From assembly GCA_964577695.1 (NCBI GenBank), contig CAZOAL010000006.1, positions 177,511-241,510 of the forward strand: 64,000 nt of DNA. Reading direction: 5' to 3'. Numbering within the stretch: position 1 is the stretch's first letter; each line of letters starts with the position of its first letter. Below, piece by piece: positions 16,253 to 39,655 of this stretch. Source of the stretch: an uncultured bacterium (GTDB taxonomy: Bacteria; Poribacteria; WGA-4E; PCPOR2b). A program made the translations under genes and the position numbers. The notes beneath the pieces were generated by a model, which was not told where the DNA came from, searched no databases, and worked only from the letters and a program-made list of their open reading frames with translations.

Positions 16253-19216
16253 ATGAACGCAATTTATTCAAGCAACCTGCAATCCATTCATAGCACCTTT
16301 GATTATCGCGAGAAATCAAGAAAGCAAGAGAACCGACAAACCAGCAGACTGACTTTCCGGCTTTCTGGTTCTCTTGGGCTTGTCCTCCTGCTGACCCTCT
16401 CCTGCCTCTCCGCCGCTTTTGCGGAACTCACCCCCACCACCCTGAAGCATGACGGTTGGGTATATTCAGTCGCCTTCAGCCCCGATGGAAAACTGCTGGC
16501 GACGGGGTCAAATGACAACACCGCCAAGGTGTGGGAGATGCCGTCGGGGGTGCTGTTGGCCACCCTCAAGCATGGCAGTTCTGTCCGGTCAGTCGCCTTC
16601 AGCCCCGATGGAAAGCTGTTGGTGACGGGGTCAGATGACAACACCGCCAAGGTGTGGGAGATGCCCGCTGGGAGGCTGATTGCCATCCTGAAGCATGACG
16701 ATGATGTAAATTCAGTCGCCTTCAGCCCCGATGGGACGCTGTTGGCGACGGGGACACGGCTAGCTGCCAAGGTGTGGGAGATGCCGTCGGGGGTGCTGAT
16801 GGCCACCCTGAAGCATGACGATTGGGTCGGGTCAGTCGCCTTCAGCCCCGATGGAAAGCTGCTGGCGACGGGGTCAGATGACAACACCGCCAAAGTGTGG
16901 GAGATGCCGTCGGGGGTGCTGATGGCCACCCTGAAGCATGACCCTATTGTAGGTTTTGTCTCCGTCGCCTTCAGCCCCGATGGGAAGCTACTAGCGACGG
17001 GGTCAGCGGACAAGACCGCCAAGGTGTGGGAGATGCCGTCGGGGAGGCTGATTGCCACCCTGAAGCATGACAATTATGTAAATTCAGTCACCTTCAGCCC
17101 CGATGGGAAGCTACTGGCGACGGGGTCTTATGACAACACCGCCAAGGTGTGGGAGATGCCGTCGGGGGTGCTGATGGCCACCCTCAAGCATGACGGTGAT
17201 GTCCGTTCAGTCGCCTTCAGCCCCGATGGAACGCTGCTGGCGACGAGGTCAAATCTCTGGAACAGTAATCTACAAAAATATACAATATCTGAAGCCAAAG
17301 TCTGGGAGATGCCGTCGGGGGTGCTGATTGCCACTCTCAAGCATGGTGATGGGGTCAGTTCAGTCGCCTTCAGCCCCGATGGGACGCTGCTGGCGACGGG
17401 GTCTGGTGGCAGTAGTAGGGTGTGGGCATCAAATACTGCTGATATTCCAATCCTCACGCAACCTTCAGATGGAAGCAAATTTGTAAACGCACTCCCCGAA
17501 CTAAAGTGGGGGAGGGTCCCGGATGTTTGGCTGTATCAAGTACAGGTGTCTAAAGACAAGAACTTTTCACAGATGGCAGTGGAGGCTTTCACCGGCGCAG
17601 AATCGTTGCAATCCAATATGGGGCAAATGGGTAGAGGTATTTTCTTTTGGCGTGTACGCCTAGTGGGATGGACTTTCGGAAACTGGTCGGAGGTTTGGAC
17701 ATTTAACATAGACCTGCCCGTTGTCCTCACCAAAATCAGCAATCAAGCAGGCTTGGACATCACCGTAGATATCGTCATCGAAGAGGTGAAAAACCTGTCG
17801 GGATTCCAGTTGAATCTGGGCTTTGATCCAAGCGTGCTGGAAACGGTCGGAGTTACCGAAGGTTCATTCCTCAAAAGCGACGGCAGCGGCACGTTCTGGA
17901 AACCTCCTGAGATTGACAATGTGGGGGGACAAATTCGCAACATCACAGGGGCGCGAATCGCTGCAACAGGCGTGGAGGGCTTGGGTGTGTTGGCGAGCGT
18001 TCAGTTCAAAGCCAAAAAGACCGGAACCTCCAGGTTGACCCTCAGCAGCGTCCAGCTGTCCGATGTGCAGAATAACGCTATTCCGCTGGTCACGGCAAGC
18101 GGCAGCGTGGAAATCGGCGCGACATCGATATTGAAGCCGGTGACAAAGGTGGACAAGTCCATCGTTGTCGAAGTGGTTGCGGGTAACGTCTTCAACCTGC
18201 ACGCCTTCAGCTTTGACCTGGCTTACGATGCGAAGTTGCTGGAAGTGATGGACGTGAGCGAAGGCGATCTGCTCAAACGGGATGGACATCAAACGACCTT
18301 TGGCGCTCCAAAGGTTGACGCTTCAAACGGCATCATCACAGGCATCACTGCGGAGAGGGTCAAGAAAGAGGGCGTGAACGCATCCGGAGTATTGGCGCGA
18401 ATTGAGTTTAAGATCTGGGAAGGCGGTGCTCCCAAATTCAGCATTCGCAACAGCAACCTGCGAGACCCGAACGGAAATGTCGTCTTGGCGACGCCCCAGG
18501 ATGCCAGCGTTACTGTCGTCGCTTCGCCGGAGTGGGACGTGAACAAAGATTACGTGGTGAACATTTTGGATCTGGTCATTATCGGCAGCAACTTCGGCAA
18601 AACGATCAGCGGCAAGCCCCGCCCCAATCCCGATGTCAAACCCGATGGCGTCGTGAATATCTTCGACATCATCCCCGTCGCCACCCATTTCGGTGAGAGT
18701 TACAGTGCCGTGCCGCAGCCCCCCGCCGCGCCTTTCGCTTTGCGCCTGGGGGAGAATAGGAATTATCGCGGTCAAGAGACCGCTCTCACAACGGCTCAAC
18801 GCGCCATTTTGCAATCGCTCTATGAAAAGCTGAAGGCTTATCCCGATACGGACCCTTCGGTGGTCGTCGTCAAGCGGTTGTTGGCGGCATTGCTGTCGAT
18901 AAAATCAGAACCAGCTTTGCCGGAAGTGACGCGACTGGCTCAGAACTATCCCAACCCCTTCAACCCCGAAACATGGATTCCGTACCAGTTAGCTCACGAT
19001 GCAGAGGTGCAGATTACCATCTACGACCTTAAAGGTTCAGTGGTGCGTCGGTTAGATCTGGGGCATCAGAAGGCGGGCTACTACGCTAATCGGGACAGTG
19101 CGGCGTATTGGGACGGCCGGAATGAGGCAGGTGAACGGGTTTCAAGCGGTGTGTATTTCTACACCTTCACCGCGGGAGCGTTCACTGAAACGCGAAGGCT
19201 GATAGTGCTGAAGTAG
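16253..19216 (+). CDS. secreted WD40-repeat protein (about 10 near-identical repeats) with cohesin/dockerin-like regions and a T9SS-type (Por_Secre_tail / FlgD-Ig-like) C-terminal domain
   Basis: Repeats VAFSPDGKLLATGSDDNTAKVWEM; DVNKDYVVNILDLVIIGSNFGK dockerin-like; C-terminal NYPNPFNPETWIPYQL...IYDLKG. Confidence 0.7.
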   Translation: MNAIYSSNLQSIHSTFDYREKSRKQENRQTSRLTFRLSGSLGLVLLLTLSCLSAAFAELTPTTLKHDGWVYSVAFSPDGKLLATGSNDNTAKVWEMPSGVLLATLKHGSSVRSVAFSPDGKLLVTGSDDNTAKVWEMPAGRLIAILKHDDDVNSVAFSPDGTLLATGTRLAAKVWEMPSGVLMATLKHDDWVGSVAFSPDGKLLATGSDDNTAKVWEMPSGVLMATLKHDPIVGFVSVAFSPDGKLLATGSADKTAKVWEMPSGRLIATLKHDNYVNSVTFSPDGKLLATGSYDNTAKVWEMPSGVLMATLKHDGDVRSVAFSPDGTLLATRSNLWNSNLQKYTISEAKVWEMPSGVLIATLKHGDGVSSVAFSPDGTLLATGSGGSSRVWASNTADIPILTQPSDGSKFVNALPELKWGRVPDVWLYQVQVSKDKNFSQMAVEAFTGAESLQSNMGQMGRGIFFWRVRLVGWTFGNWSEVWTFNIDLPVVLTKISNQAGLDITVDIVIEEVKNLSGFQLNLGFDPSVLETVGVTEGSFLKSDGSGTFWKPPEIDNVGGQIRNITGARIAATGVEGLGVLASVQFKAKKTGTSRLTLSSVQLSDVQNNAIPLVTASGSVEIGATSILKPVTKVDKSIVVEVVAGNVFNLHAFSFDLAYDAKLLEVMDVSEGDLLKRDGHQTTFGAPKVDASNGIITGITAERVKKEGVNASGVLARIEFKIWEGGAPKFSIRNSNLRDPNGNVVLATPQDASVTVVASPEWDVNKDYVVNILDLVIIGSNFGKTISGKPRPNPDVKPDGVVNIFDIIPVATHFGESYSAVPQPPAAPFALRLGENRNYRGQETALTTAQRAILQSLYEKLKAYPDTDPSVVVVKRLLAALLSIKSEPALPEVTRLAQNYPNPFNPETWIPYQLAHDAEVQITIYDLKGSVVRRLDLGHQKAGYYANRDSAAYWDGRNEAGERVSSGVYFYTFTAGAFTETRRLIVLK

Positions 19217-19325
19217 AAAACGTGAAACGTGAAACGTGAAACGTGATGAAGAGACCGTTCTTTTTCACGCATCACGCATCATTCTTCTCACGCATCACGC
19301 AGCACGCATCATTCCTTTCACGTTT
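19213..19325. repeat. hairpin-type repeat with tandem heptamer arms (GTGAAAC x3 / CACGCAT units) after the WD40 gene
   Basis: Seen in sequence. Confidence 0.6.
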
Positions 19326-20583: not shown

Positions 20584-20710
20584 CTTGAACAAAACAAGAT
20601 AGGTCATAAACTGCGATTTAATGTGCTGCATCTTGCATCTTGAATCCTGCATTCATCACAGATTCAAGATTCAGGATTCAGGATGCAAGAGTGTCATTTT
20701 GCAGTAGAGG

Positions 20711-21007: not shown

Positions 21008-21100
21008 GACTGACCTCGTGCGTAATTCGTAAGACGTAATGCGTAAAAAGACACTTGCTCTTGTTACGCATTACGCATTACGCATTACGTCTCACGTTTT
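21005..21100. repeat. hairpin repeat with CGTAATG/CGCATTA heptamer arms
   Basis: cgtaagacgtaatgcgtaa ... ttacgcattacgcattacgcattacg. Confidence 0.6.
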
Positions 21101-22181
21101 ATTCCGAGACTTTCACCAACCCCTTGGTGCACTCGTCTTCGCGATTCCGCACCTGAGTGATTCCCTCGACCAGCTCATCCAACGGGAACCGATGACTGAT
21201 AATCTTATCCATGTCGACGGCTCCTGTGGAGATCAACTGAACGGCTTCCTCCCAGGTATTCGGCGCAAGCCAGGAGAAGCGGATGGTTTTGTCCATCAGG
21301 ATGGTGTTGAGAATCGGGACTTGCATCACGTCTTTGTCGCCGGGCAAGCCAAAGAGCACAACCGTCGCGTGACGCCCCGTGACTGCAAGCGCCGTATGAA
21401 TCGCGTCGAGCGAGCTCGTTGCGGTGATCGCCCGATCTGCGAGTTCACCGTTGTTGAGTGACTTAATCTTTTCAGAAAGGTCTTTGACATAGTAAGGCGA
21501 ATGGGGGTCCTTTGTATTGACAACCACATCCGCCCCCAACTCCGCACCGCGTTTGAGGCGGTAGTCGCGCGTGCCAACAAGGATGACGTTGCCTAACCCT
21601 CGGCTTTTGAGGACCTGTACCATCATCAAACCGATTGGGCCAGGTCCGAACACGACGGCTGTCTGTCCCGGCTCGGCATTCAGGTTATTGACTGCGTACA
21701 AGCCGCACGCCAACGGTTCCGTCAGGGCACCTTGATCATAAGTGACGTGGTCTGGAAGTTTTAATGTCCAGTGGTAATCAGAGAGCGTATATTCTGCAAA
21801 GCCCCCATTGACACTCACGCCAAGCACACGTTTTTCAGTACAGAGGTTGGAAAGCCCCTTTTTGCTCCAGTAGGAATTGGGGTTTGACTGCACCGGGTTC
21901 GCAACGACGCGGTCGCCAATCTTAAAGCCCCCTACCCTCGCCGCCTCACTTCCAACCGCGACAACGTCACCGGTAAACTCATGCCCAAGAACGAGCGGAC
22001 CTTTACCGTTAGGTGTCTCAAGAGAACTTTTACCGAAATAGTAAGCGACATCGGAACCGCAAATCCCAACCGAGTGAACTTTAATGAGCACGTCACTAGG
22101 TTTGGGTTCGGGAATATGCTTCTCCTCAATCGCCATCTTTTCGGGTTCATAGAAGATTTGCGCCTTCATGGATTCCGCCAT
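21099..22181 (-). CDS. zinc-dependent alcohol dehydrogenase (MDR family; sorbitol/threonine dehydrogenase-like)
   Basis: GICGSDVAYY zinc motif; GxGxxG; RBS AGGAGG before MAESMKAQ. Confidence 0.8.
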   Translation of the reverse strand: MAESMKAQIFYEPEKMAIEEKHIPEPKPSDVLIKVHSVGICGSDVAYYFGKSSLETPNGKGPLVLGHEFTGDVVAVGSEAARVGGFKIGDRVVANPVQSNPNSYWSKKGLSNLCTEKRVLGVSVNGGFAEYTLSDYHWTLKLPDHVTYDQGALTEPLACGLYAVNNLNAEPGQTAVVFGPGPIGLMMVQVLKSRGLGNVILVGTRDYRLKRGAELGADVVVNTKDPHSPYYVKDLSEKIKSLNNGELADRAITATSSLDAIHTALAVTGRHATVVLFGLPGDKDVMQVPILNTILMDKTIRFSWLAPNTWEEAVQLISTGAVDMDKIISHRFPLDELVEGITQVRNREDECTKGLVKVSE

Positions 22182-22231: not shown

Positions 22232-22360
22232 GCTTGGTCATAATGACTTGGAGATGCAGTTGTAGCCTAAGATTCTATCTTGGCTGCTGGCATGAGAACC
22301 AAGTTAGAAACTTGGGCTACGTAAAGATTTCATCCGAATTATGACCACTCCTCAACTCAT
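22232..22360. mobile_element. MITE-like repeat family B, copy 1 (ends ggcttggtcataat / gaattatgacc; palindromic core gtagcc.aagattctatcttgg)
   Basis: Seen in sequence; shared with copies at 22555 and 40652. Confidence 0.6.
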
Positions 22361-22554: not shown

Positions 22555-22695
22555 AGGGTTGGTCATTATTCTCAGGGGAGGCAATCGTAGCCCAAGATTT
22601 CGACAAGCTCAACCCGGCGGATTCTATCTTGGCCCCTGGCGCATGGGCCAAGATAGAATCTTGGGCTACAACTCAACCGCCGGCGAATTATGACC
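22555..22695. mobile_element. MITE-like repeat family B, copy 2 (composite). Its terminal ATGACCAAGCC supplies the first ATG of the downstream giant ORF
   Basis: cgtagcccaagatt...ggccaagatagaatcttgggctac core; gaattatgaccaagcc end. Confidence 0.6.
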
Positions 22696-22719
22696 AAGCC
22701 TTACTTACCTAAATTTACA

Positions 22720-25700
22720 ATGGTAAACCGAAAGAAAGCAGCAAAGATGAGAGATTGGAAAAAGAAAAGTTATATCATCTTATCCATCATCGTTGGTAGC
22801 CTGTACATCTTCGCAACGTCTACTGTTGCCCAAGAGATTAAACGTCAGTCTATCCCTGTTGGAATGTTCAATGTGTATGCCACCATTGACAACAACAATA
22901 CCGGTCTGCCAACGCCCGACCTCCGCGATGTCTGGCAGGGCGTGCCGACAAACTGGGAGGGGGGCTACTACCCTTACGAAGCGTGTAACCTTGTGCAGCA
23001 CTACTGGCCGAAGGAACTTCCGACGGATGTGCCACCGGGACAGGATGCGTATGTCGTTTGGTGGACACGGTTTCTCCGGGAGGTTTACGAGCAAGGCAAC
23101 GAGAAGGGCGAGGTTCGATTGCGTGCGATTGTCGGTCCACTTTTCAGCCATTACGAAGCGTTCGGCGAGCAGTGGCTCATCAATTTTATCCAACGGCTCT
23201 GTGAGTGGGAGCGGAGCGGCCCACACGATGGCGTAATTGCCGGATGGTATCTCATCGAAGAGCCAATGGGGTCGGGCTCGCACAACTTCAACGTTGACAC
23301 CTTTGAGGAGATGGCGAAGGTCGTCGATAAAGCGGAAACGGCCGGTGGCTTTCGACACCATGACCGCTATGTTGATGTTTCCCTTGATGGGGCATTTTTC
23401 ACTCCACAGGGGCTGGCGCGTTTCTGCCGCCCAGCCGATGTCGTGATGGTCAGCTCCAGCAGCTATCTCTGGCTGACGAGTGGGACGCAGCCTGTATTTA
23501 ATACGCGTTATCGGGATTTAGCGTTCTCAATGAACCAGGTTCGCCGCACCGTTTTTCCAGACCATGACCAACACGGGCTGCCGCGTCCTAAGATTCATCT
23601 CGTCCTGCAAGCCTACGATCCGATGGGGTTTGGACAACCGACGCATTGGGAGATGCGCCAGCAAATTCGAGAGGCGTTGACCCTTGATTTTGAATTGCTC
23701 GGCAACCAACCGGTTGCACCAGCGGATGGAATCTGGTTTTTCTGGTGGCCGGGGCTGACCTTTGAGAACAAAAACCGTGTGGACGACTGGCTCTACGGAC
23801 GACAGATTGCGGAAGCGATCGAGCTTGAAGTGGCAGAGGTGACGGGTAACGGAGGTGAAACCCGGTCTGTGAATGTGCCGACAGCATCCCGCTTTGCCTT
23901 CCCACCGCTGGTTCCCTTCAACCCGGACGATGGCATCATCCCCTACGAGTTGGCAAAGTCAGGGCTTGTCACAATCGAAATCCTCGACATGAATGGCTCT
24001 AAGGTTCAGGCGTTTGACATGGGGATTCAGAGCGCGGGGCGGCTGCACCGGTTCGGAGGCCCCCGCTGGTTGCCACTCTCAACCCAGCCTGACGGGCGAT
24101 ATATCTTCCGGCAGTTTCTCAACTCCGTCCCCGTTGACAGCGTTGAGGTGGAAGTGCAACGGCAACCACGCCTCTTTAGCCCTTCCCATGTGCCCAACAT
24201 TTGGTCAAACGACAACACCATTGAGGTGACATGGCGTCCACCCGCTCTGGGCGCGGGGTTGGGGGGATTTTCATTTCTGTGGAGCAATTCTCCTTTCAGC
24301 ATTCCGCCTCGCACCGTTGCACTGACGCCATCGGATGTCACGTATACAAGTCCACCGTTGCCGGATGGGAAATCGCACTATTTTCATCTCCTAAGCGTCG
24401 ATGCAAACGGCGAATGGGGGGAGACATCGCATTTAGGCCCATTCTGGATTGATACGATACCCCCAGCTTTACCTACCGATGTTGTCAGCTCCAGTCATAA
24501 GACCGGAATTTGGTCATCGGCAAACGTGATTGATATCAAATGGTCTGCTGCGCCCCCCCCTCAATCCCCCCCGCGGGCAGGGGGTGAAGAGGGGCCTCCC
24601 CCCCTGCCCGCGGGGGGGACAGGGGGGGGGGCGTCTTTGCGCGGCTATTCAATCGTCTGGGACCGTCAGCCGTTCACGCTCCCGCCAGCGGAGATTAACG
24701 TTGGGCCCGCTGTCACTGCACTCTCGACGCCTCCACTTGTGGACGGCATCTGGTATCTGCACTTGCGCCCTGCGGATGTCGCTGGCAACTGGACAAGCGA
24801 TGCTGTGCACCTTGGCCCCTTCCAGATTGACACCCACTCGCCCAATCCACCGTCCGACTTGAGGGGCGTCTCTCATCAGGTCGGCGTCTGGTCAAACCGT
24901 GCCGAGATTGAGTTGGAATGGACAGCCGCTTCGGATGAAACCAGCGGCATCAAAAATTATCTCATCGTTTGGGATACCTCCCCGGACACACATCCAACGC
25001 CTGATGCCAATCCGTCCATCTTCCTTCCGCCCCTACTTGCAGGGGGGGGGGCTGGCAATTCGCCTAAGGTCAGCTACCGTGGCCCTGCCCTCGTTGATGG
25101 CGATACCCATTACGTCCATCTTCGCGCTGTGGATGGTGCCGGGCTGACGACAGATGAAACGCTCCATCTCGGTCCCTTCCGAATCGACGCAACCCCGCCG
25201 GGCGATATTCGTGGCTTTGCCGCGTATGGCGTAGAGCCCCCGCCAACCCCTCCCCTCTCGCCTCTCCCCGCTAGCGGAGAGGTTCCGCTTGACCTCAACA
25301 AGTGGCTGATCTCCCCTCAAATGATCCTTGCGTGGCAGGTAAGCACAGATTCCGGTAGCAGCGTTGCGGTCTACGAAATTACGCGAGTGCGCCCGGAAAC
25401 GGGAGAACAGCAGACCTTCCAAATCAACGCGGATGCGCCATCTCAATGGACCCCGGCAGGTCTGAGCGATGGTGCTTGGGTATTTCGCCTCCGGGCCGGC
25501 GATAACGCTGGTAACTGGAGCGCTTATTCCGACCTGACGCTCAAGATTGATACCACCGTGCCAACGCCTATCCTCAACAGTCCCTCCCACCCGAATAGCG
25601 AACGCTGGTACGCGGATGCGAATCCAATCGTCGAATGGATGATTGAGCGCGATCTATCCGGCATCGCGGGGTATCTTGGAGAATGGAGCGATCAACCGGA

Positions 25701-28700
25701 CACCATTCCTCAAACGCCAATCAATGAATCGACAATCGACAATCGAGGTTCGGTGAATGGAGGAACGGAGGAAGTAGAGCGGGCGGCTCGCCCGTTTGGA
25801 AAGATACGCAATACGCAATACGCAATACGCAATACGAACGACTCACCACTCACCATTCACCCATCACTCCCTGACGGCATCTGGTATTTCCACCTGCGTG
25901 CGATCGACAACGCGGGCAACCGGAGCGAAGTCGCTCACTATAAGGTGCAGATTGAGCACCAAGTCCCTGAAACACCAATCATCCGCTCACAGACCCACCC
26001 CCCGGAGCGTTGGTCAAAGAGCCATATTGTCGATCTGCGTTGGGACGAAGCCCCCACATTGAGCGGCCCCCCCCGCTACAGTTTTGCGCTCGACCACGCC
26101 CCCGACACCCTCCCTGACGATACGCCCGAACCAATTAGGGAGGGTGAAGCTCCCGCTGAACCCCACATTGAGCAAACGCTGGACGATGGGATTTGGTACT
26201 TTCATCTCAAGGCAATTAGCAGAACCGGAATTAGGAGCGAGACCGCCCATTATCGTATACAGATTGATAGCCAGATTGCGACGCCGGTCATCCGCAGCCC
26301 CTCGCACGCGGATAGCACGAGCTGGTATGCGAACCCATCGCCGGTGATCGAATGGACGATTGCGGACGACCTCTCTGGAATTGCCGGCTATTTCGGCGAA
26401 TGGGATTCCCAACCGAACACGATTCCGCAAACGCCTATTTCTCCCTCACCCCCCCTCACCCCCGGCCCCTCTCCCACAGGGGGGAGAGGGGAGCCACTTG
26501 ATAACGAAAACAGGGTGTTCGCACTCCAAAGCGGGGTCTGGTACTTCCACCTGCGCGCGATCGATAACGCCGGCAATCTCAGCGAAACGGCGCACTACCA
26601 GGTTCGCATCGATGCGTCCGCGCCGGCTGTGCCTGTCATCCAGTCCAGCTCCCATCCGGCGGGCGTTTGGCGGTCTCAGTCGGCTGTGGATATCCGCTGG
26701 AACGTTGGCACCCCCACCCCAACCCTTCCCCGCGGACAGGGAGGGGGCTTGAGTGGGATGGCTGGCTATAGCTTCGTGCTAGACCAGAAACCCACCACGT
26801 TGCCTGATGAGCGGATTGACGGCCTTCAGCCTCAAGTGACAACCACGCTTGCGGATGGCATCTGGTACTTCCACCTGCGAGCGCAGAGCAATACGGGACT
26901 GTGGAGCGAAACTGCCCATTACGAGATACGAATTGACACCCACCCTCCCGAAATCACGATTACGCTGCCGCCTAGTGGGGAGCGGGAGCGCGAGGCTCCT
27001 GCCGAGTGGTTCAGGCAAGCCATCAATGAATACGCTGGGGAGATGCGCGATGAGCTATCCGGCATTGACGAGACAACGCTCGAATATCGGTACGCGGGGC
27101 TGGATTGGAAGCCCTTCGTCAACGAGGCGTCAAGCGGTTGGCTTGACACAAACGAATTGCCCCATGTCACCCAGGCAAGCGGCGTGTCGTTGCAAGTGCG
27201 CGTTCGCGATCGCGCGGAGAACGTTGGGCTGTCTGAGGAGCGGCTGATTCGCGTGGATGTCGAACCTCCATCACTGACAGTGACAAGTCCCACGCATCCC
27301 CAGCAGGGAAGATGGTACGCCGATCCGAACCCGGTGGTTGAATGGACGGTTAGTAGCGACCTCTCCGGGATTGCAGATTACTTTTGGGTGTGGGACAACC
27401 AATCGGACACGATTCCCCGGCAGGGCCAGAAAACCGGAGACCCAGAAAGCCAGACAGCCAACGAGAGCAAGTCACAGGTTCGGCGGGAGCCTCACCCTCC
27501 CACCAGTCACAGGTTCGGCGGGAGCCTCACCCTCCCACTCACGGATGGCATCTGGTATTTCCACTTAATCGCCTTTGATAACGCCGGCAACCCAAGCGAG
27601 CCAGTCCACTACCGTTTTCAAATTGACACGCAACCGCCGAAGGGGACGATTCACATTCTCAGACCGGAGGTCATCAAGGGTCGTCCAAAATCTGTTCGCT
27701 ATCTTGAATCAAAGGAGGTTCCGCCGCGCGTCAGCTCAGGAGAAATTCGGATTGTTCTCACGCTATCGGAAGAGATGATTGAGCCCCCGAAACTCTTTTT
27801 CCAGCCGAATAGTCGGCAGGAGATAGCCCTTGCACTCGGCCGGAGCCTCGTGCTCCCACTGGATGGGGCCGAGGGGGCACAAAATCGCTCGCCGCTTCAA
27901 TGGCACGCCACATTACAGGTTTCGCCTCACACAGGCGATGGTGTGGGCAAGTTTCGATTTGTCGGCACTGATGGAGCTGGCAACCTTGGGGGTGAAATTA
28001 CGATGGGCATGGAACTCGTCATCGATACGCTCATCCATGCGGATGAAACGGAAGTCCAGCATCGAATCGGCGATAACGGCGCGATTGCGACAATCCCTCC
28101 CCGAGCGCTCCGCTCCGATGTACGCTTGCACCTTGAGGCGTCCCCCCATACCCCCCCCTCCAGGGGGGGGACGCAAGGTTCTGACCCTGGCTTCCCCCCC
28201 GTGGACGGGGGGGGTACGGGGGGGACCACAGGGGGGGGGACATCCAACCGCTACCGCCTCATCGCCTGGGATGGAACTGGACGTCCCCTTCCGAATCTGA
28301 CGTTTGTCGCGCCGATTGAGTTACAACTGCCAATCGATGCAACGCAGCCGATTGGGGCGGGAGATGCCGCGTATACAGTGCTTTACAACGATGGTGTCAG
28401 GACCCATCGGATCGGCACCGTCGTCGCAGGTGGCCAGGCGATCGCGTCCGTCAGTCAGATCGGCGAATTTCTGATTGCCCCCGCGCCCACGCCCAAGCGG
28501 AAGATTACCGGCGGGTGGGCGGCCCCGAATCCTTTCACGCCCAACCACAGCGGCGATGCCAGCGATCGAACAATCTTCCACGTTCAAACGCGGGGGGACG
28601 ATGTGACCTTCACCATCGAAATCTATGGCCTGACGGGACGACGCATTCGCACGTTGCGCAACGGATTGAATGTGTGGGATGGGTCAGATGAAAGCGGCAG

Positions 28701-28782
28701 GGTTGTCGAAAATGGTGTGTACATCTACCAGATTCATGCGGGGGATGAGGTGATTAGCGGGACCGTTGTCGTGGTGAGGTGA
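22720..28782 (+). CDS. giant secreted modular surface protein (about 2020 aa): N-terminal TIM-barrel-like putative glycosyl-hydrolase-like domain, about 10 tandem ~100-aa beta-sandwich modules (PSHP..RWYA..DLSGIAGY..WD.QPDTIP...DGIWYFHLRA.DNAGN) and a T9SS-type C-terminal sorting domain
   Basis: Repeated modules visible in the translation; C-terminal PNPFTPN...FTIEIYGLTGRRIRTL tail; signal-peptide-like N-terminus after M at 22720 or 22747. Confidence 0.65.
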   Translation: MVNRKKAAKMRDWKKKSYIILSIIVGSLYIFATSTVAQEIKRQSIPVGMFNVYATIDNNNTGLPTPDLRDVWQGVPTNWEGGYYPYEACNLVQHYWPKELPTDVPPGQDAYVVWWTRFLREVYEQGNEKGEVRLRAIVGPLFSHYEAFGEQWLINFIQRLCEWERSGPHDGVIAGWYLIEEPMGSGSHNFNVDTFEEMAKVVDKAETAGGFRHHDRYVDVSLDGAFFTPQGLARFCRPADVVMVSSSSYLWLTSGTQPVFNTRYRDLAFSMNQVRRTVFPDHDQHGLPRPKIHLVLQAYDPMGFGQPTHWEMRQQIREALTLDFELLGNQPVAPADGIWFFWWPGLTFENKNRVDDWLYGRQIAEAIELEVAEVTGNGGETRSVNVPTASRFAFPPLVPFNPDDGIIPYELAKSGLVTIEILDMNGSKVQAFDMGIQSAGRLHRFGGPRWLPLSTQPDGRYIFRQFLNSVPVDSVEVEVQRQPRLFSPSHVPNIWSNDNTIEVTWRPPALGAGLGGFSFLWSNSPFSIPPRTVALTPSDVTYTSPPLPDGKSHYFHLLSVDANGEWGETSHLGPFWIDTIPPALPTDVVSSSHKTGIWSSANVIDIKWSAAPPPQSPPRAGGEEGPPPLPAGGTGGGASLRGYSIVWDRQPFTLPPAEINVGPAVTALSTPPLVDGIWYLHLRPADVAGNWTSDAVHLGPFQIDTHSPNPPSDLRGVSHQVGVWSNRAEIELEWTAASDETSGIKNYLIVWDTSPDTHPTPDANPSIFLPPLLAGGGAGNSPKVSYRGPALVDGDTHYVHLRAVDGAGLTTDETLHLGPFRIDATPPGDIRGFAAYGVEPPPTPPLSPLPASGEVPLDLNKWLISPQMILAWQVSTDSGSSVAVYEITRVRPETGEQQTFQINADAPSQWTPAGLSDGAWVFRLRAGDNAGNWSAYSDLTLKIDTTVPTPILNSPSHPNSERWYADANPIVEWMIERDLSGIAGYLGEWSDQPDTIPQTPINESTIDNRGSVNGGTEEVERAARPFGKIRNTQYAIRNTNDSPLTIHPSLPDGIWYFHLRAIDNAGNRSEVAHYKVQIEHQVPETPIIRSQTHPPERWSKSHIVDLRWDEAPTLSGPPRYSFALDHAPDTLPDDTPEPIREGEAPAEPHIEQTLDDGIWYFHLKAISRTGIRSETAHYRIQIDSQIATPVIRSPSHADSTSWYANPSPVIEWTIADDLSGIAGYFGEWDSQPNTIPQTPISPSPPLTPGPSPTGGRGEPLDNENRVFALQSGVWYFHLRAIDNAGNLSETAHYQVRIDASAPAVPVIQSSSHPAGVWRSQSAVDIRWNVGTPTPTLPRGQGGGLSGMAGYSFVLDQKPTTLPDERIDGLQPQVTTTLADGIWYFHLRAQSNTGLWSETAHYEIRIDTHPPEITITLPPSGEREREAPAEWFRQAINEYAGEMRDELSGIDETTLEYRYAGLDWKPFVNEASSGWLDTNELPHVTQASGVSLQVRVRDRAENVGLSEERLIRVDVEPPSLTVTSPTHPQQGRWYADPNPVVEWTVSSDLSGIADYFWVWDNQSDTIPRQGQKTGDPESQTANESKSQVRREPHPPTSHRFGGSLTLPLTDGIWYFHLIAFDNAGNPSEPVHYRFQIDTQPPKGTIHILRPEVIKGRPKSVRYLESKEVPPRVSSGEIRIVLTLSEEMIEPPKLFFQPNSRQEIALALGRSLVLPLDGAEGAQNRSPLQWHATLQVSPHTGDGVGKFRFVGTDGAGNLGGEITMGMELVIDTLIHADETEVQHRIGDNGAIATIPPRALRSDVRLHLEASPHTPPSRGGTQGSDPGFPPVDGGGTGGTTGGGTSNRYRLIAWDGTGRPLPNLTFVAPIELQLPIDATQPIGAGDAAYTVLYNDGVRTHRIGTVVAGGQAIASVSQIGEFLIAPAPTPKRKITGGWAAPNPFTPNHSGDASDRTIFHVQTRGDDVTFTIEIYGLTGRRIRTLRNGLNVWDGSDESGRVVENGVYIYQIHAGDEVISGTVVVVR
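24553..24633. repeat. G/C mini-palindrome (poly-C-CCGCGGGCAGGGGG ... CCCCCTGCCCGCGGGGGGG) lying in frame inside the giant CDS
   Basis: Encodes PPPQSPPRAGGEEGPPPLPAGGTGGGA; shares the CCGCGG core with similar elements at 26710-26748 and 59992-60060. Confidence 0.6.
25775..25862. repeat. heptamer-arm repeat element ((ACGCAAT)x4 ... (ACTCACC)x3, preceded by palindrome cgggcggctcgcccg) lying in frame in a loop of one module of the giant CDS
   Basis: Translated as ERAARPFGKIRNTQYAIRNTNDSPLTIHPS; same unit type as intergenic hairpin repeats. Confidence 0.6.
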
Positions 28783-29385: not shown

Positions 29386-32298
29386 ATGTCAAATAAACAA
29401 GCACTCCAAGAATTTGTTGATTACGTCAGACGATTAAAAGGCGATGAGAAAGGAGAGGCACAGTTGTTTTGTGACCGTTTCTTCCGTGCCTTTGGTTATG
29501 GCGGCATATTAGAGGCTCATGGCTCACTTGAGGCACGTATCAAGTTTAGCGACTCGGGTCGCACTAAATTTGCGGATTGCCTTTGGTCGCCGCATGGCAA
29601 AGATGGAGTGTTGATTGAGATGAAAAAGAAGGCGGAAAAGAATCTTGAAACTCATTTTCCGCAAGCCCGCGACTATTGGATTGAAATGAATCCGGAAAAG
29701 GTCATCGGGCCGGGGGCTCAAAAGCCAAAATATATCATTCTTTGCAACTTTGAGCGTTTTTTGCTCTACAGACAATTATCATTCGTTGACGAGATTACAA
29801 TTGACGAGTTTGTGGAGCGAGCCAGCGCCTTTAACTTTATGCTCCCGGAAGATAAAGAACCGATCTTCCACAACAATATTGAAGCTATTTCACAAGACGC
29901 GGCACGAACAATCGGTGAAATATTCAAACACTTAATTTTTGAAAAAGGGGAAGAACGGGAAGTCGCTCAACGTTTTCTTTTACAGTGTGTACTTGCCCTA
30001 TTTTCAGAGGATTTCGGTCTTTTGCCGCCGTTCATTTTTTCTGAGCTCATTCGTGACTGCCAAAGAGGGCAAAGCGCATACGATCTCTTAGGCGGCCTTT
30101 TTAGACAAATGGCGAGCGAGAAACCTGCGAAGGGTGGACGGTTCAAAGATGTCAAATATTTCAACGGCGGCCTTTTTGACGAAGTTGAGCCGCTGGAGCT
30201 CGATTCAACAAGTCTTAACCTTCTCGCTAACGCTGCCGATTTCAACTGGAAAAGTGTTAACCCTTCTATTTTTGGCGCTCTTTTTGAAAGCACGATGAAC
30301 GAAAAGGAGCGTCACCAATTTGGGGCGCATTACACAAGCGAAGCGGATATTTTGAAAATTGTTAATCCAACCATCGTGCGTCCGTGGAAGGAACGCTTAA
30401 ATAAGGCGAAAACACTCCAAGAGTTATCGAATTTACTGGACGAACTTGAAAATTTCAAAGTGCTAGACCCAGCCTGCGGGTGTGGTAATTTTCTTTATGT
30501 TGCCTACCGTGCTTTGAAAGACATTGAGATGCAGATTATTGAGAAAATCGCTGCTAACTTTTCTTCACGTTCGGTCAAACCTTTGAAATTCGGTATCTCC
30601 CGCGTATCTACTAAGCAATTCTACGGGATTGACCTTCTGCCCGTTGCCGTAGAGGTCGCGAAAGTGACCCTAATGCTTGGCAAGGAGTTGGCGGCAGATG
30701 AATGGAACAAACGTATCCGTTTGCTCATGTCAATCCTTGATCTCAATTTTGATGAGGGGTTGCCGTTGGAACGTCTGGACGATTTTATCATCTGTGATGA
30801 CGCCCTTTTCTGTGATTGGCCGGAATTCGATGTGGTTATCGGTAATCCGCCGTATCAATCGAAAAATAAAATGCAGATGGAAATGGACAGGGAATATATT
30901 GACCGGGTGAGAGCCCATTACCCCGATGTTCCAGGTCGAGCCGACTATTGCGTCTATTGGTTCCGACGAGGACACAAAGAGATGAAAGAAGGTCAACGTG
31001 CAGGTTTTGTCGGTACAAACACGATACGTCAAAACTATTCCCGCGAAGGTGGGCTCGACTATATTGTAAATAATGGTGGCACGATTACCGAAGCCGTTTC
31101 TACACAGGTGTGGTCAGGTGACGCTGTCGTTCACGTTTCGATTGTCAACTGGATAAAAGGAGCGGAAAAAGGGGGAAAGTCACTTGTATTACAACGTGGC
31201 GACTCGGTTGACTCGCCTTTTGATTATTATGATTTAGAATACATAAACTCCGCGTTGAGCCTTGCTGTCGATTTGACCTCAGCCAGATCCCTCAAGGTGA
31301 ATGAGAATTCCAATGCGTGTTTTCAAGGCCAAACACATGGGCACGAGAGTTTTTTGCTGGTGAGAGAGGAAGCGGAAAGTTTGCTGAAATCCGATGCAAA
31401 ATGTGGGGAGGTCTTGTTCCCATTTCTTACAGCCAATGAAATGATCGGGGGTGAAAATTCGCTTCCAAGACGATATGTGATTGACTTCCGCAAACACGAC
31501 ATATTTTCAGCCAAGAAATATTCAGAGCTTTTCAATAGAGTCCAGAGTTCCGTTTTGCCAGATCGGAAGGCAAAGGCGAAAGAAGAAGAACGACGAAACA
31601 ACGCTACGCTGGCAAAAAACCCGAATGCCCGTGTCAACCATCACCACGCCAATTTCCTTAAGCAATGGTGGAAGCTATCTTATCCACGAGACGAACTTAT
31701 GGAAATTATTGAGTCTATCCCCCGTTATTGCGTTTGTGGACAGGTTACTAAGCGCCCGATTTTTGAATTCATCTCTTCCGAGATTCATCCGAATGCAGCA
31801 TTGGTAGTTTTCCCCCTTGCTGATGACTACTCCTTTGGTATTTTGCAATCAATAGTACACTGGGAATGGTTCACCGCGCGCTGTTCAACATTGAAAGGTG
31901 ATTTCAGGTATACTTCAAATACTGTTTTTGACTCTTTTCCGTGGACTCAGAAACCAGCAAAGGCACAGGTAAAAGAAATCGCCAAGCGTGCTGTGGAATT
32001 GCGCTCCGTGCGGCGCAGGATAATGGCGGAAAATAAAATGAGTTTGCGTGAACTTTACCGGGTAATGGAAGAAACCGCTGCTAACCCGGTCAGTGAGGTG
32101 CAAGACAAACTAGATGCGGCAGTATTTTCAGCCTATGGGATGAAAAAGAATGATGATATTCTCGCTTTTCTACTTGCGTTAAATCTCGATTTGGCTGCAC
32201 AAGAAGCGAATGCGGAAGAAATATTCGGCCCAGGTCTCCCGCCACATATTGAAAATCCCGCAGAGTTTATTACGGGCGATTGCATTCGTATGCCGTAA
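29386..32298 (+). CDS. MmeI-family Type IIL/IIG restriction-modification enzyme (single-chain nuclease + gamma-class N6A MTase + target-recognition domain)
   Basis: N-terminal AQLFCDRFFRAFGY ... D-x9-EMK nuclease motif; VIGNPPYQSK MTase motif IV; 970 aa; AT-rich. Confidence 0.7.
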   Translation: MSNKQALQEFVDYVRRLKGDEKGEAQLFCDRFFRAFGYGGILEAHGSLEARIKFSDSGRTKFADCLWSPHGKDGVLIEMKKKAEKNLETHFPQARDYWIEMNPEKVIGPGAQKPKYIILCNFERFLLYRQLSFVDEITIDEFVERASAFNFMLPEDKEPIFHNNIEAISQDAARTIGEIFKHLIFEKGEEREVAQRFLLQCVLALFSEDFGLLPPFIFSELIRDCQRGQSAYDLLGGLFRQMASEKPAKGGRFKDVKYFNGGLFDEVEPLELDSTSLNLLANAADFNWKSVNPSIFGALFESTMNEKERHQFGAHYTSEADILKIVNPTIVRPWKERLNKAKTLQELSNLLDELENFKVLDPACGCGNFLYVAYRALKDIEMQIIEKIAANFSSRSVKPLKFGISRVSTKQFYGIDLLPVAVEVAKVTLMLGKELAADEWNKRIRLLMSILDLNFDEGLPLERLDDFIICDDALFCDWPEFDVVIGNPPYQSKNKMQMEMDREYIDRVRAHYPDVPGRADYCVYWFRRGHKEMKEGQRAGFVGTNTIRQNYSREGGLDYIVNNGGTITEAVSTQVWSGDAVVHVSIVNWIKGAEKGGKSLVLQRGDSVDSPFDYYDLEYINSALSLAVDLTSARSLKVNENSNACFQGQTHGHESFLLVREEAESLLKSDAKCGEVLFPFLTANEMIGGENSLPRRYVIDFRKHDIFSAKKYSELFNRVQSSVLPDRKAKAKEEERRNNATLAKNPNARVNHHHANFLKQWWKLSYPRDELMEIIESIPRYCVCGQVTKRPIFEFISSEIHPNAALVVFPLADDYSFGILQSIVHWEWFTARCSTLKGDFRYTSNTVFDSFPWTQKPAKAQVKEIAKRAVELRSVRRRIMAENKMSLRELYRVMEETAANPVSEVQDKLDAAVFSAYGMKKNDDILAFLLALNLDLAAQEANAEEIFGPGLPPHIENPAEFITGDCIRMP

Positions 32299-32340
32299 GG
32301 GGGGAGATAAACTGAGTGGTTGAAAACAAAATCCGGCTAA

Positions 32341-32445
32341 CAAAGCAGGTAGGTCAGGCTGCGCCTGACACCATATAGTCAGGCACAGCCTGACCTACTT
32401 ACTGACACCATATAGTCAGGCACAGCCTGACCTACTTACTCTGAC
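32341..32445. repeat. complex imperfect hairpin (aggtaggtcaggctgcgcctgac...cagcctgacctactt) followed by a 37-bp tandem direct repeat (gacaccatatagtcaggcacagcctgacctacttact x2)
   Basis: Seen in sequence. Confidence 0.6.
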
Positions 32446-32793
32446 TTTGGAGACGCTCTTAGGTTTGGAAGTGATGAGCCCTGTGATCTTGTTGTTGGTA
32501 AGGATGCTATCGATACTAAATACAGGGTGGGTTCTGGAGATTCTGGAACTCTAAAAAAGTTCAAGCAATATGGAAAATTACTTCAAGATGAAGGTTATAC
32601 CCCTGTTCTATTATTGGTTCGAGATGACAACTTGCCTGCTGCAATAACAGCATGCGAGGTCGGCGGATGGACGATTTCCACAGGGAAGGCAACATTTGAC
32701 TACATCGAACAAAAAACGGGTTTCGATTTATTGGGTTGGTTGAGCAATCATAGAGATAGAGGAACATTCTTGATTAATAGGGAGCAGCAATGA
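32431..32793 (+). pseudogene. 5'-truncated ORF (no ATG; opens immediately after the hairpin/direct-repeat region) overlapping the downstream MTase by ATGA; possible remnant of the cognate restriction endonuclease
   Basis: Reading frame DFGDALRFGSDEPCDLVVGKDAIDTKYRVGSGDSGTLKK...; position and 4-bp overlap suggest an R-M operon; function not recognised. Confidence 0.3.
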
Positions 32794-33716
32794 ACTATTT
32801 AGATCAAATTCTTCAAGGTGACTGCATTTCTATTATGTCAGAAATGCCAAAGGATTCTATTGCTGCGTGTATCACCGACCCACCATACAATTATGAATTT
32901 ATTGGTAGAAAATGGGATGACAAGGAAATCAATCGAAGATTAGAGAGAATAAAAGAGAGCAAAACACTTGTGAAAAATATCCCCTATGGGAGTGGGTTGG
33001 CTGGAGGAGTCCGCAATTTTAGATGGTATGAAAGAAATTATGAAAATGTAATTGAGTACACAAACTGGTGCAAAGAGTGGGGTAAGGAGCTTTTTAAGGT
33101 ATGCAAGAACGGATCACCCGTTGCTGTTTTCAATAGCACAAGAACCGTGGCGCATGTACAAGTCGCTCTTGAAGAAGCTGGTTTCTATACACGCGATATT
33201 CTTGTACATCGCCGACGTTCAGGCATACCAAAGGGGTTAAACCTTAAAAGCAAATTAGAAAAAATGCATCATCCGGATGCAGATAAATGGGAGGGCTGGC
33301 ACACTTGCTTTAGAAACGAATGGGAAGCGATAGTGCTTGTTCAGAAGCCTTTAATTAAAAACTATTGGGAGACACTTGAAAAAACAGGTGTTGGAGTCTT
33401 TAAGACTCTCAATGAAGATGGCTCTTTTCAGTCAAACATTCTAGAGGGTTACTATAGTAAGTCTGAGAAAAAGTTTGCGCACTGCACGGTCAAGCCTTTG
33501 GAGCTAATAAAGAAACTTATTCTTACTCTGGTGCCGAAATCGGATGACAACGTAGTTCTAGACCCTTTTGCCGGAAGTGGCACTACTCTAGTAGCGGCAA
33601 AACAGCTCGGTTATCATTTTACAGGAATCGAAATAGAGCCAGAGTATGTACAAATAATTGAAAATAGAATCTTAGAAACCTTTCAGCCTGCACTTGAATT
33701 TGAAAAAAGCACCTAA
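32790..33716 (+). CDS. beta-class DNA methyltransferase (DPPY motif IV near the N-terminus, FAGSGTT motif I near the C-terminus), probably N6-adenine
   Basis: ACITDPPYNY and VLDPFAGSGTTLVAA motifs; AT-rich. Confidence 0.75.
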   Translation: MNYLDQILQGDCISIMSEMPKDSIAACITDPPYNYEFIGRKWDDKEINRRLERIKESKTLVKNIPYGSGLAGGVRNFRWYERNYENVIEYTNWCKEWGKELFKVCKNGSPVAVFNSTRTVAHVQVALEEAGFYTRDILVHRRRSGIPKGLNLKSKLEKMHHPDADKWEGWHTCFRNEWEAIVLVQKPLIKNYWETLEKTGVGVFKTLNEDGSFQSNILEGYYSKSEKKFAHCTVKPLELIKKLILTLVPKSDDNVVLDPFAGSGTTLVAAKQLGYHFTGIEIEPEYVQIIENRILETFQPALEFEKST

Positions 33717-36314: not shown

Positions 36315-36425
36315 TCCTACAAACCTCCGTTTTGAGACCAGGAAGGAAGGGAAGAAGGGAAGGATGGAAGGAGGCAATCTTCCATCCTTCCTTTCACGTT
36401 TCACGCATCACGCATCACGTTTCTA
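36315..36425. repeat. hairpin repeat with GGAAGG-unit arms plus CACGTTT/CACGCAT heptamers
   Basis: Seen in sequence. Confidence 0.55.
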
Positions 36426-39539: not shown

Positions 39540-39655
39540 CATGAAACGTAAAACGTAAAACGTGATGGAGGACTGGAAGATTGGAGGCTTGTCTTTACCC
39601 ATCCTTCCGTTCCTTCCATTCTTCCTTCTTTTACATTCTTCCATCTTTTACCCCG
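39540..39655. repeat. hairpin repeat: (ACGTAAA)x2 heptamers followed by GGAAGG-unit arms
   Basis: Seen in sequence. Confidence 0.55.

Follow-up and report, generated by a model that had tools for sequence, protein, structure and literature searches.

Two genes of an uncultured bacterium of the Candidatus Poribacteria carry, in frame, short hairpins built of C-runs and G-runs. The DNA analyzed here, hereafter the window, is a 64,000-nt stretch (positions 177,511 to 241,510, forward strand) of contig CAZOAL010000006.1 in the metagenome-assembled genome (MAG) GCA_964577695.1. Its G+C content is ~50% and its best protein matches are named Candidatus Poribacteria. Five elements, g1 and g6 in the gene for a giant surface protein and c1, c2 and c3 in a gene of the CRTAC1 family, are palindromes at the level of the DNA and are missing from the orthologues compared (Table 1). 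We judge it probable, at about 65%, that they are dispersed stem-loop repeats, comparable to repetitive extragenic palindromic (REP) sequences and Rickettsia palindromic elements (RPE), which persist in genes when their net length is a multiple of three and they fall in a loop. An earlier note on this DNA had listed sites of this kind; each of its coordinates does hold a C-rich sequence followed by a G-rich sequence, in frame.

Table 1. Host genes, hairpin elements and other repeats. Positions are those of the window unless a contig is named; Cn and Gn are runs of n bases.
Feature	Positions	Strand	Description
Host gene 1, giant surface protein	22690-28782	+	6,093 nt, 2,030 aa; open reading frame (ORF) and translation
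Element g1, inverted doublet	24551-24633		83 nt; arms 37 nt, 89% complementary (inverted-repeat search)
Element g6, inverted doublet	28142-28239		98 nt; arms 51 nt, 73% complementary (28131-28233, inverted-repeat search)
Element c3, two simple hairpins	59992-60056		C10-GCCCGC-G7 and C8-GTGAAC-G8, 20 nt apart; inverted-repeat search: 59994-60056
Element c2, four-run hairpin	62961-63002		AAT-C6-TA-C6-TTTCCAAA-G6-TA-G6-ATT; arms 20 nt, perfect
Element c1, four-run hairpin	63205-63249		C7-TCAAT-C7-AAAGTTGT-G5-AAG-G5
Weak site g2	25030-25062	+	CCCC-TACTTGCA-G10, read as PLLAGGGAGNS
Weak site g3	25250-25282	+	CTCCCCT heptamer-like run and 7-bp stem CCTCTCC/GGAGAGG; linker preceding module 4
Site g4, different family (CTCTCC type)	26441-26493	+	CTCACCCCC-GG-CCCCTCTCCC-ACA-GGGGGGAGAGGGG; right outer arm missing
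Site g5, degenerate g1-type unit	26710-26748	+	TTCCCC-GCGGACA-GGGAGGGGG; module 8 B-C loop
Position in giant protein	24553, 26710		Loop preceding SGIxGY strand
Position in giant protein	25030, 26441		Loop preceding DGIWYFHL
Position in giant protein	25250		Linker between modules
Position in giant protein	28142		C-terminal region outside modules
Second intragenic repeat family, GGCGGGAGCCTCACCCTCCC	26138-26157, 26984-27003, 27482-27501, 27517-27536	-, -, +, +	Four copies
Heptamer arrays AATCGAC x2.9, ATACGCA x4.7, ACTCACC x3.0	25727-25861	+	Module 5 loop, in frame; Tandem Repeats Finder
Intergenic heptamer arrays	161-216, 538-565, 19218-19322, 20626-20690, 21019-21101, 36392-36423, 39544-39563, 48820-48946
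Host gene 2, CRTAC1 family	59695-63590	-	TPR N-terminus, FG-GAP repeats, UnbV_ASPIC domain; pseudogene
CRTAC1-like ORF	59695-61191	-	Aligns to last ~500 residues of homologues
TPR-like ORF	62925-63590	-	Aligns to first ~230 residues of homologues
IscB-like ORF	61345-62574	-	409 aa; Pfam RRXRR E=2.7e-53, HNH E=1.2e-13
HEARO (omega) RNA	62604-62835	-	Directly upstream of IscB ORF; Rfam RF02033, E=8e-13
C7-GTGRAC-G7 tandem arrays	L014 6068-6222, L047 3042-3255, L046 4541-4952		Read as VPPVDGGDTGEVMTF or SPPFTGGIKGGGY repeats

Anatomy of the hairpin elements

The protein encoded by the giant gene begins with a signal-peptide-like N-terminus, followed by nine repeated modules of 104-140 aa each that resemble fibronectin type III (FN3) domains. 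Its C-terminus resembles a sorting domain of the CHU_C or type IX secretion system (T9SS) type, its Pfam matches are Big_13 and CHU_C, and one homologue is annotated as a T9SS type A sorting domain protein from Candidatus Poribacteria.

The strong sites share a common unit consisting of an outer C-run, a short spacer (TCAAT, ATA, TA, ACA or TAC), an inner C-run, a loop and a G-run. The second halves of g1 and g6 repeat the first in inverted orientation. The left unit of g1, C8-TCAAT-C7-GCGGGCA-G5, is separated by a 13-nt spacer from the right unit, C7-TGCCCGC-G7-ACA-G10. In the case of g6, the left unit is C6-ATA-C8-TCCA-G8 and a 23-nt spacer leads to the right unit, C7-GTGGAC-G8-TAC-G7, which is followed by ACCACA-G9. 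The pairing of c2 includes A/T positions (AAT...ATT, TA/TA and TTT/AAA), and c1 fits a widespread unit, C6-TCAAT-C6-loop-G-run-AAG, which is the family consensus from the metagenome copies described below. In translation, g1 gives PPPQSPPRAGGEEGPPPLPAGGTGGG, the minus strand of c3 gives PPVHGGGRGDALKSPPRAGGG, and g6 adds 31 residues to the C-terminal non-module region.

Several sub-units are common to both genes, which lie 32-35 kb apart. These are C7-GTGGAC-G8 (28194) and C8-GTGAAC-G8 (60035); C7-TGCCCGC-G7 (24598) and C10-GCCCGC-G7 (59992); and C8-TCAAT-C7 (24553) and C7-TCAAT-C7 (63207). The CCGCGGG core, which had been thought general, is one loop variant among several: a sequence like it occurs only at 24573-24611, 26733-26739 and 60002-60007, and the other loops are GTGRAC, TCCA, TTTCCAAA and AAAGTTGT.

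Because each element is a palindrome with a C-run at its 5’ end, the elements read alike on both strands. A C-run precedes a G-run on either strand, and hairpins of the opposite order (G...C) number three in the window, one being the middle of g1. The elements are free of stop codons in 3-5 of six frames, compared to 2.3-3.8 for random segments of equal length, because the runs contain no stop codons.

Palindromy at the level of the DNA

A scan for hairpins (C-run of at least 5, up to 14 nt, G-run of at least 5) was compared with the expectation from a first-order Markov model in 100 simulations. Eight hairpins were seen in the window, as compared to 0.7 expected and a maximum of 4 in the 100 simulations. 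All eight fall within 24566-24618, 28151-28214, 59992-60056, 62972-62991 and 63219-63238.

Nine inserts were recoded synonymously, 500 times each, with the codon usage of the window and then refolded. The strong sites beat at least 498 of the 500 recodings (24550-24636, 28141-28242, 59992-60056, 62958-63005 and 63205-63249); recodings that folded as well numbered none for g1, g6 and c2, one for c3 and two for c1. The minimum free energy of g1 was -46.9, compared to -22.8 +/- 4.1 for its recodings, and that of g6 was -39.5, compared to -21.1 +/- 3.6. Across the five sites the z-scores against synonymous recodings ranged from -2.7 to -6.8. On this outcome, the five sites are solid.

Codon choice within the inserts also departs from that of the surrounding genes. 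Proline is encoded by CCC in 31 of 45 cases (29% in 23 other genes of the window; 37 of 161 in the rest of the giant gene) and glycine by GGG in 36 of 48 (28% and 38 of 147, respectively), with Fisher P values of 1e-7 (CCC) and 7e-11 (GGG), in a test that is partly circular, since the runs drew attention to the sites, and that takes the insert boundaries from alignment gaps. This bias argues that the runs are a property of the DNA and not a requirement of the peptide.

These data bear on the explanation that the protein has been selected for low-complexity Pro/Gly linkers, the palindromic look being a by-product of CCN and GGN codons. All of the sites do translate to a Pro...Gly-rich coil, and the weaker sites g2-g5, four of the nine tested, fold no better than their recodings. 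However, the five strong sites surpass nearly all of theirs, the CCC and GGG bias is restricted to the inserts, and the complementarity of c2 reaches A/T positions. The strong inserts are also missing from all compared orthologues, and elsewhere the same DNA is read in different frames (see below). We consider selection for linkers very improbable as a general explanation, and for the five strong sites it is largely refuted.

An Rfam search of the whole window returned no family at the gathering score, and at a relaxed threshold the hairpins matched only generic microRNA-precursor models, far below threshold. A known structured RNA does not account for the hairpins.

The inserts are extra to homologues and lie in loops

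The 20-residue insert of c3 is found in none of the 40 closest CRTAC1 homologues, which read G-V-R-SNRSAIG where the window reads G-T-PPVHGGGRGDALKSPPRAGGG-SNRSAIG. The c1 and c2 inserts, both N-terminal, are found in none of 17 homologues, and the 11 Poribacteria homologues of the giant protein all lack the g1 and g6 inserts; the weaker inserts are missing from most. An alignment of the nine modules gives the same result, with the inserts extra to insert-free modules, as the earlier note had proposed. That note had also allowed for the same segments being present in all orthologues as ordinary linkers, and for the strong inserts the reverse is found in every orthologue compared. At the DNA level, the net gain over the insert-free orthologue L050 is 60 nt for c3, 36 nt for c2 and 24 nt for c1, and the frame is kept.

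Within the giant protein the inserts do not always lie between the DTIPQTPI and DGIWYFHLRA motifs, as had been claimed, but occupy at least three different loops as well as the C-terminal region (Table 1). Two AlphaFold2 models were used to place inserts on the fold. The model of module 2 (predicted local distance difference test, pLDDT, 86.9) matches FN3 domains of titin and fibronectin. In it the g1 insert forms a coil of low confidence, lying between strands 27-31 and 62-70, a position that we interpret as the B-C loop of an FN3-like fold. In the model of the CRTAC1 fragment (pLDDT 84.8; predicted template modeling score 0.87), residues 383-400 have a pLDDT below 50 and are predicted as coil between strands 370-378 and 409-416. 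The models thus support the expectation that inserts map to surface loops, with both modeled inserts in predicted disordered loops between beta-strands.

Conservation across assemblies and in a second strain

The same region is available in three places: the NCBI MAG contig (243 kb), the Joint Genome Institute (JGI) metagenome 3300010391 and, in part, the Logan assembly of SRR6155503. Between the window and the JGI contig, which stems from the same population, the 6,093-nt giant gene shows 5 substitutions and 0 indels, and the Logan assembly encodes the CRTAC1 fragment identically. No variation in tract length was found among the three assemblies. In a related strain, GCA_016178185.1 (~96% identity), g1 lies at the same site with equal run lengths except that G10 has become G9T, a substitution, and with 9 extra nt at its left edge. 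The runs shared across assemblies and the presence of g1 in a second strain indicate that the elements are real and heritable, predate the split of the two strains and evolve fast.

One contig of that strain, JACOTU010000996.1 (L053), ends exactly at the G10 run of the window at 25042-25051 (site g2), which suggests that such tracts break short-read assemblies.

Homopolymer errors or chimeric joins during sequencing and assembly would be another source of such structures. Long homopolymers are error-prone, and the contig that stops at a G10 run fits this explanation. It is hardly credible given that run lengths are identical in the NCBI MAG, the JGI contig and the Logan assembly, that a second strain shares g1, that all frames are preserved and that the same elements occur in cyanobacterial isolate genomes.

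Weaker sites in the giant gene

Four weaker sites (g2-g5) were recognized in the giant gene, one of which, g2, was absent from the earlier note's list. They are no more hairpin-like than their peptides dictate: 275, 159, 109 and 154 of 500 recodings folded equally well for g2, g3, g4 and g5, respectively. The description of the listed sites as palindromes therefore holds for five (24551, 28142, 59992, 62961 and 63205) and fails the recoding test for three (25250, 26441 and 26710), the latter being decayed or partial copies at best.

Site g2 is extra to most homologues of the giant protein and may be a decayed unit. Site g3 adds ~11 aa relative to the closest homologue, and Tandem Repeats Finder reports a period of 7. 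The loop of g5, GCGGACA, shares 6 of its 7 positions with GCGGGCA of g1, and the module alignment gives 11 aa extra. In the case of g4, the peptide PLTPGPSPTGGRGE lies in the module 7 loop preceding DGIWYFHL and the 10-bp stem is real. The site corresponds to the left two-thirds of a CTCTCC-type hairpin, complete copies of which are found in the same loop of three modules of the Poribacteria orthologue L177. Those three copies are identical. Their interpretation as independent insertions was rejected, since their flanks are ~90% identical; they therefore reflect module duplication or conversion.

The hairpin unit in other genomes

The pattern C7-GTGRAC-G7 was scanned for in a collection holding one genome per species, outside of which the source genome falls (the window's own two matches were not returned). 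The scan found 48 stretches, from Anaerolineales, Caldilineaceae, Chloroflexales, cyanobacteria (isolates included), Planctomycetales and others. An outer C-run and/or G-run lies a few bases away in 55 of 56 copies. One MAG holds nine hairpin copies, each the core of a ~150-nt dispersed repeat. The pattern is translated in all frames, giving PPVHGG (12), PPFTGG (8), PPVDGG (7), PRSRGG (4) and others. Stop-free frames of 200 aa or more hold 80% of the copies, compared to 83% of random positions, an open-frame proxy for coding that is crude in the GC-rich DNA of other phyla. All ten hairpin-bearing ORFs tested have Pfam domains and are real genes, and in at least seven the hairpin is internal, between or inside domains. 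The genes include CobN/Mg-chelatase, a phosphotransferase system (PTS) EIIA-HPr-EI fusion, TPR-CHAT, adenine deaminase, amine oxidase and a MurG-like GT28 glycosyltransferase. Location in surface or secreted proteins, to which the earlier note had drawn attention, is consequently not a property of the element. Tandem arrays of the same pattern, with a 45- or 39-nt period, were seen in long open frames of a Nostocaceae MAG and an unclassified MAG (Table 1).

A metagenome scan for CCCCCCTCAATCCCCCC gave at least 120 stretches. Chance 17-mer matches in this collection are expected at ~60 by our own rough estimate, and reliance is therefore placed on the structure downstream (loop, G-run and AAG) and not on the number of matches. 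Among the matches listed, 91 of 128 copies continue into a loop and G-run, the three bases past the G-run are AAG in 47 and AGG in 18, and at least 16 form inverted doublets whose loops are complementary, as in g1 and g6. The AAG/AGG asymmetry, which c1 shares in its AAG form, does not follow from the search pattern or from symmetry. Copies of this set lie in long open frames in 70-86% of cases among the matches listed, compared to 79-91% of random positions.

Closer to the source genome, two other Poribacteria have, in their orthologues of the giant gene but at different sites, hairpins of the same design; one of these, AAATCCCCCCTGCCCCCCTTTAGAAAAGGGGGGCAGGGGGGATTT in L176, is almost a twin of c2. 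No further copies were found in the 8 kb beyond the start of the window (L175) or in three contigs of related Poribacteria.

Other repeat families in the giant gene

The giant gene also holds a second family of repeats, GGCGGGAGCCTCACCCTCCC, with 4 matches (at most 3 mismatches) as compared to 0.00 expected. All are in this gene and both orientations occur, read as GGSLTLP or GRSLVLP on one strand and as (R)EGEAPA or EREAPA on the other. The copies are in-frame extras relative to homologues, that at 26138 adding 6 aa and that at 26984 adding 8 aa. A 35-nt tandem duplication covers 27470-27538, and a possible fifth, more diverged copy is seen at 27833-27860 (+).

The third family consists of the heptamer arrays in the loop of module 5, which is ~30 aa longer than that of other modules. 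Intergenic tandem arrays of the same kind are abundant in the window (CGTAAAA, TTACGCA, AAACGTG, TCACGCA, TGCATCT and others). They often pair with their own reverse complement to give hairpins, and are reminiscent of the short tandemly repeated repetitive (STRR) sequences of cyanobacteria.

The co-occurrence of several repeat families points to the giant gene being a sink for repeats generally, by virtue of its permissive loops and not of a special affinity of one element.

C- and G-runs of at least 7 nt cluster at the listed sites. The giant gene has 11 such runs, including G10 twice and G9. Adaptive upkeep could be envisaged, either because slippage in G/C tracts of 8-10 nt turns the gene on and off, making them contingency tracts, or because diversification of host-facing FN3 loops is selected. 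FN3 domains are known to bind through their B-C loop. This property, the number of runs, the concentration of at least three repeat families in one gene and the different inserts that orthologues hold in similar loops are all in keeping with such upkeep. However, tract lengths are uniform in the three assemblies and the related strain shows substitution only. Frequent slippage at so many tracts would seldom leave the frame intact, the frameshift in the CRTAC1 gene lies away from homopolymers, and the same elements are found in cytoplasmic housekeeping genes elsewhere. We regard adaptive upkeep as quite unlikely.

The CRTAC1-family gene is interrupted and apparently frameshifted

The TPR-like and CRTAC1-like ORFs, described earlier as separate genes, are two halves of one gene of the CRTAC1 family, whose homologues are single proteins of 740-835 aa. 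The halves are split by an IscB element of ~1.54 kb (61296-62835, -), at which the CRTAC1 frame ends ...EEQI and resumes PRFTNIE.... The element conforms to the IS200/IS605-type IscB (OMEGA) arrangement, having an IscB ORF (RRXRR/RuvC and HNH) and an upstream HEARO/omega RNA whose match is full-length (model 1-211 of 211) but scores 68.3 bits, short of the gathering score of 83. At the boundaries of the element neither a target duplication nor C/G hairpins were found; a link between the IscB element and the hairpins was dropped because C/G hairpins are lacking at its ends.

In addition, a 1-nt deletion at ~62928 (-) relative to L050 (GGCT-CTGAAC compared to GGCTACTCAAC) creates the stop that ends the TPR-like ORF, past which the CRTAC1 frame carries on as LNIAYMTIGGYPEQVPEPYLIPPQAFESEEQI. 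The position is not a homopolymer, and the change could be a real frameshift or a sequencing error. Given the IscB insertion and the frameshift, gene 2 is a pseudogene and not a working exported protein. The three in-frame copies probably entered it before the IscB element and the frameshift inactivated it.

Neighboring features of the window

A palindromic repeat, GATTCTATCTTGGCCC, has 5 matches in the window compared to 0.69 expected (22620-22660, 40649-40773 and 22271-22286). One is a perfect hairpin ~30 nt upstream of the start codon of the giant gene, and another is the core of an inverted repeat with 58-nt arms (40649-40773). Purine-rich GGAA/GGAAGGAAG arrays together with CCTT/CTTCCATC arrays form long intergenic hairpins at 14034-14118, 36340-36395, 39599-39651 and 63689-63775. 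The last of these lies just upstream of the CRTAC1-family gene and gave spurious Rfam matches to microRNA precursors. Near-identical perfect hairpins, AGAAACCGAGTTTTT/AAAAACTCGGTTTCT, are found at gene ends at 43776-43808 and 45642-45674; they are terminator-like but repeated in sequence.

Two clusters resemble restriction-modification or defence systems. That at 7992-12394 has low GC (0.40-0.42) and comprises a D12-class adenine methylase and a HerA/DUF87-like ATPase. The other, at 29386-33716, consists of an MmeI-type enzyme (29386-32298) followed by an N6_N4 methylase (32790-33716), and a 37-nt tandem repeat with a hairpin (32365-32440) lies directly past the MmeI gene. Pfam identifies an AAA_21 ATPase and a DUF4276 protein at 50352-52222 (-), a pair which may be an OLD/Gabija-like defence system. 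A 987-aa protein with a WD40 beta-propeller and cohesin domains is encoded at 16253-19216 (+); its WD40 part is, at the DNA level, a 123-nt tandem array of 6.6 copies (16437-17251).

Origin of the elements

An arrival of the copies by insertion is suggested by their absence from orthologues, by sub-units shared between unrelated genes, by non-homopolymer features that recur across phyla and by sites that differ between lineages; once in place the copies may be neutral passengers. Several observations weigh against reading them as dispersed repeats. No full-length identity was seen between any two copies in the window, and only sub-units are common. No target-site duplications or flanking direct repeats were seen at c1, c2 and c3, the three sites comparable at the DNA level. 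No empty site was found in a close relative, the sole close strain already carrying g1. In that strain the inner stem of g1 has two uncompensated changes, and the stem is therefore not under detectable constraint. No hairpin is intergenic in ~72 kb of this genome (0 of 8 in the window), all being in two genes; classic REPs are distributed otherwise, and the pattern could reflect generation on the spot or selection in place of random insertion. No Y1 or REP-associated tyrosine transposase (RAYT) was found by Pfam among the 36 window ORFs scanned, the only candidates there being a weak YhgA-like match (3189-4175) and IscB. The crudeness of the open-frame proxy in other phyla belongs with these points.

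The main rival is an origin in place, in which Pro/Gly-coding C- and G-runs grew by slippage, fold-back or template switching made the inverted duplications, and nothing moved. It would account for the lack of target-site duplications and of identical full-length copies, for the confinement of copies to two genes with none intergenic, and for g2, g3 and g5, which look like intermediates or remnants. Loops vary between copies yet are complementary inside a doublet, as fold-back copying predicts. However, the TCAAT spacer and the GTGRAC and GCCCGC loops recur across unrelated genes and phyla, and AAG stands past the G-run in 52% of copies among the matches listed. The same 20-mer is read in all frames and so did not grow from Pro/Gly codons. 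The hairpin is embedded in the ~150-nt dispersed repeat of one MAG, and insert-free orthologues have no Pro/Gly seed, as in GVR-SNRS at the c3 site. On balance an origin in place appears unlikely.

For dispersed repeats, the basic unit would be an outer C-run tail of 6-10 nt, a spacer of 2-5 nt (often TCAAT-like), an inner C-run, a loop of 4-8 nt and a G-run. Units are found singly, in four-run hairpins, and in inverted doublets that have mutually complementary loops, similar to the doublets of REP units that form longer hairpins (REPINs). A copy in a gene would be harmless when its net length is a multiple of three and its site is a surface loop or linker, where translation would yield a flexible Pro...Gly stretch (PPVHGGG, PPRAGGG or PPYPPLERGVGG, for example); other insertions would be removed by selection. 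The permissive loops of the FN3-like modules may have let the giant gene gather several hairpin repeats, plus the two other repeat families. Single-strand transposition of the HUH/RAYT type would best fit the hairpin ends, the inverted doublets and the missing target-site duplications.

Comparison with known repeats

RPEs are roughly 100-150 bp long and belong to AT-rich genomes. The elements of the window are 20-98 nt, are made of C/G homopolymer runs and have a unit design found in several phyla instead of one genus. As summarized in PMC3733652 and PMC3184786, RPEs are palindromic repeats lying in frame within ORFs whose products probably still function (Ogata et al. 2000, cited in PMC3733652, PMC3184786), and their peptide is tolerated because it lies outside of the folded core (PMC3733652, PMC3184786). 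Similarly, the inserts of the window are in frame in ORFs and extra to orthologues (0 of 40, 0 of 17 and 0 of 11), and their peptides are predicted in surface loops (low-pLDDT coil in AlphaFold2). The parallel with Rickettsia drawn in the earlier note is thus fair as a functional analogy, resting on palindromes that are DNA-level, in-frame, lineage-specific and loop-sited. It does not extend to family membership: the elements of the window are not RPEs and are set apart by length and range of phyla, a distinction made by description and not by consensus sequence.

REP units are imperfect palindromes of 20-40 nt, and inverted doublets of them form a longer hairpin in REPINs (Bertels & Rainey 2011, PMC3116915). 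In several species a minority of REPs is located inside ORFs, as known for GTAG/CGTC-tagged REPs (Di Nocera et al. 2013, PMC3733652). The units of the window are likewise imperfect palindromes of ~20-35 nt, and the inverted doublets g1 (loops GCGGGCA/TGCCCGC) and g6 (TCCA/GTGGAC), together with the lack of target-site duplication, resemble REPINs. Unlike REPs, they have no consistent GTAG/CGTC tag (GTAG occurs only inside the paired arms of c2), their stems are homopolymeric, none of the eight is intergenic, and elsewhere their open-frame occupancy is near that of random positions. The absence of a RAYT from the ORFs scanned is a further difference.

MITEs, or miniature inverted-repeat transposable elements, are non-autonomous and, when fused in frame to ORFs, can extend or interrupt frames without destroying them (Delihas 2007, PMC2759123; PMC3184786). 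Typically they measure 50-400 bp and have a core enclosed by terminal inverted repeats, with target-site duplications (PMC2759123; PMC3184786). In contrast, the whole of an element in the window is an inverted repeat, and no direct repeats flank c1, c2 and c3. Homopolymeric contingency tracts share with the giant gene the presence of 8-10-nt G/C runs in a surface-protein gene. Here, however, the runs are paired as hairpins, show 0 indels over 6,093 nt between two assemblies and also occur in housekeeping genes. The small dispersed repeats (SDR) of Nostocaceae are reportedly ~21-27 nt long, dispersed and possibly mobile, with hairpins and nesting, in cyanobacteria. Going by that description, the hairpin class reported here differs in spanning Poribacteria, Chloroflexi, Planctomycetes and Cyanobacteria.

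A search of the literature for C/G-run hairpins inside genes of Cyanobacteria, Chloroflexi and Poribacteria returned only general work on REPs, MITEs and RPEs. The element class is a variation on the known theme of RPEs and intragenic REPs.

Implications

The hairpins offer a DNA-level explanation for odd PPxxGG-type segments that interrupt conserved proteins in Poribacteria, Chloroflexi and Cyanobacteria. Such inserts are a possible source of error in annotation, alignment and structure prediction; assemblies may break there, as one contig here does, and genes may be split or mis-framed by gene callers. The case also shows that selfish or slippage-prone hairpin DNA can have a form that genes tolerate, which bears on the origin of new protein loops. 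If the elements are mobile, the mobilizing enzyme would be a new target for study. More tentatively, and with some doubt on our part, the copies might belong to an undescribed superfamily of G/C-homopolymer REPIN-like elements that spans phyla, has the unit C-run, TCAAT-like spacer, C-run, loop, G-run and AAG, and, unlike classic REPs, lies in coding genes about as often as in other DNA. Such elements would colonize coding genes because they are largely stop-free and encode an inert Pro/Gly coil. If this is true, the superfamily would contribute lineage-specific loop insertions on a wide scale that has been overlooked, in proteins ranging from CobN and MurG-like enzymes to giant surface adhesins.

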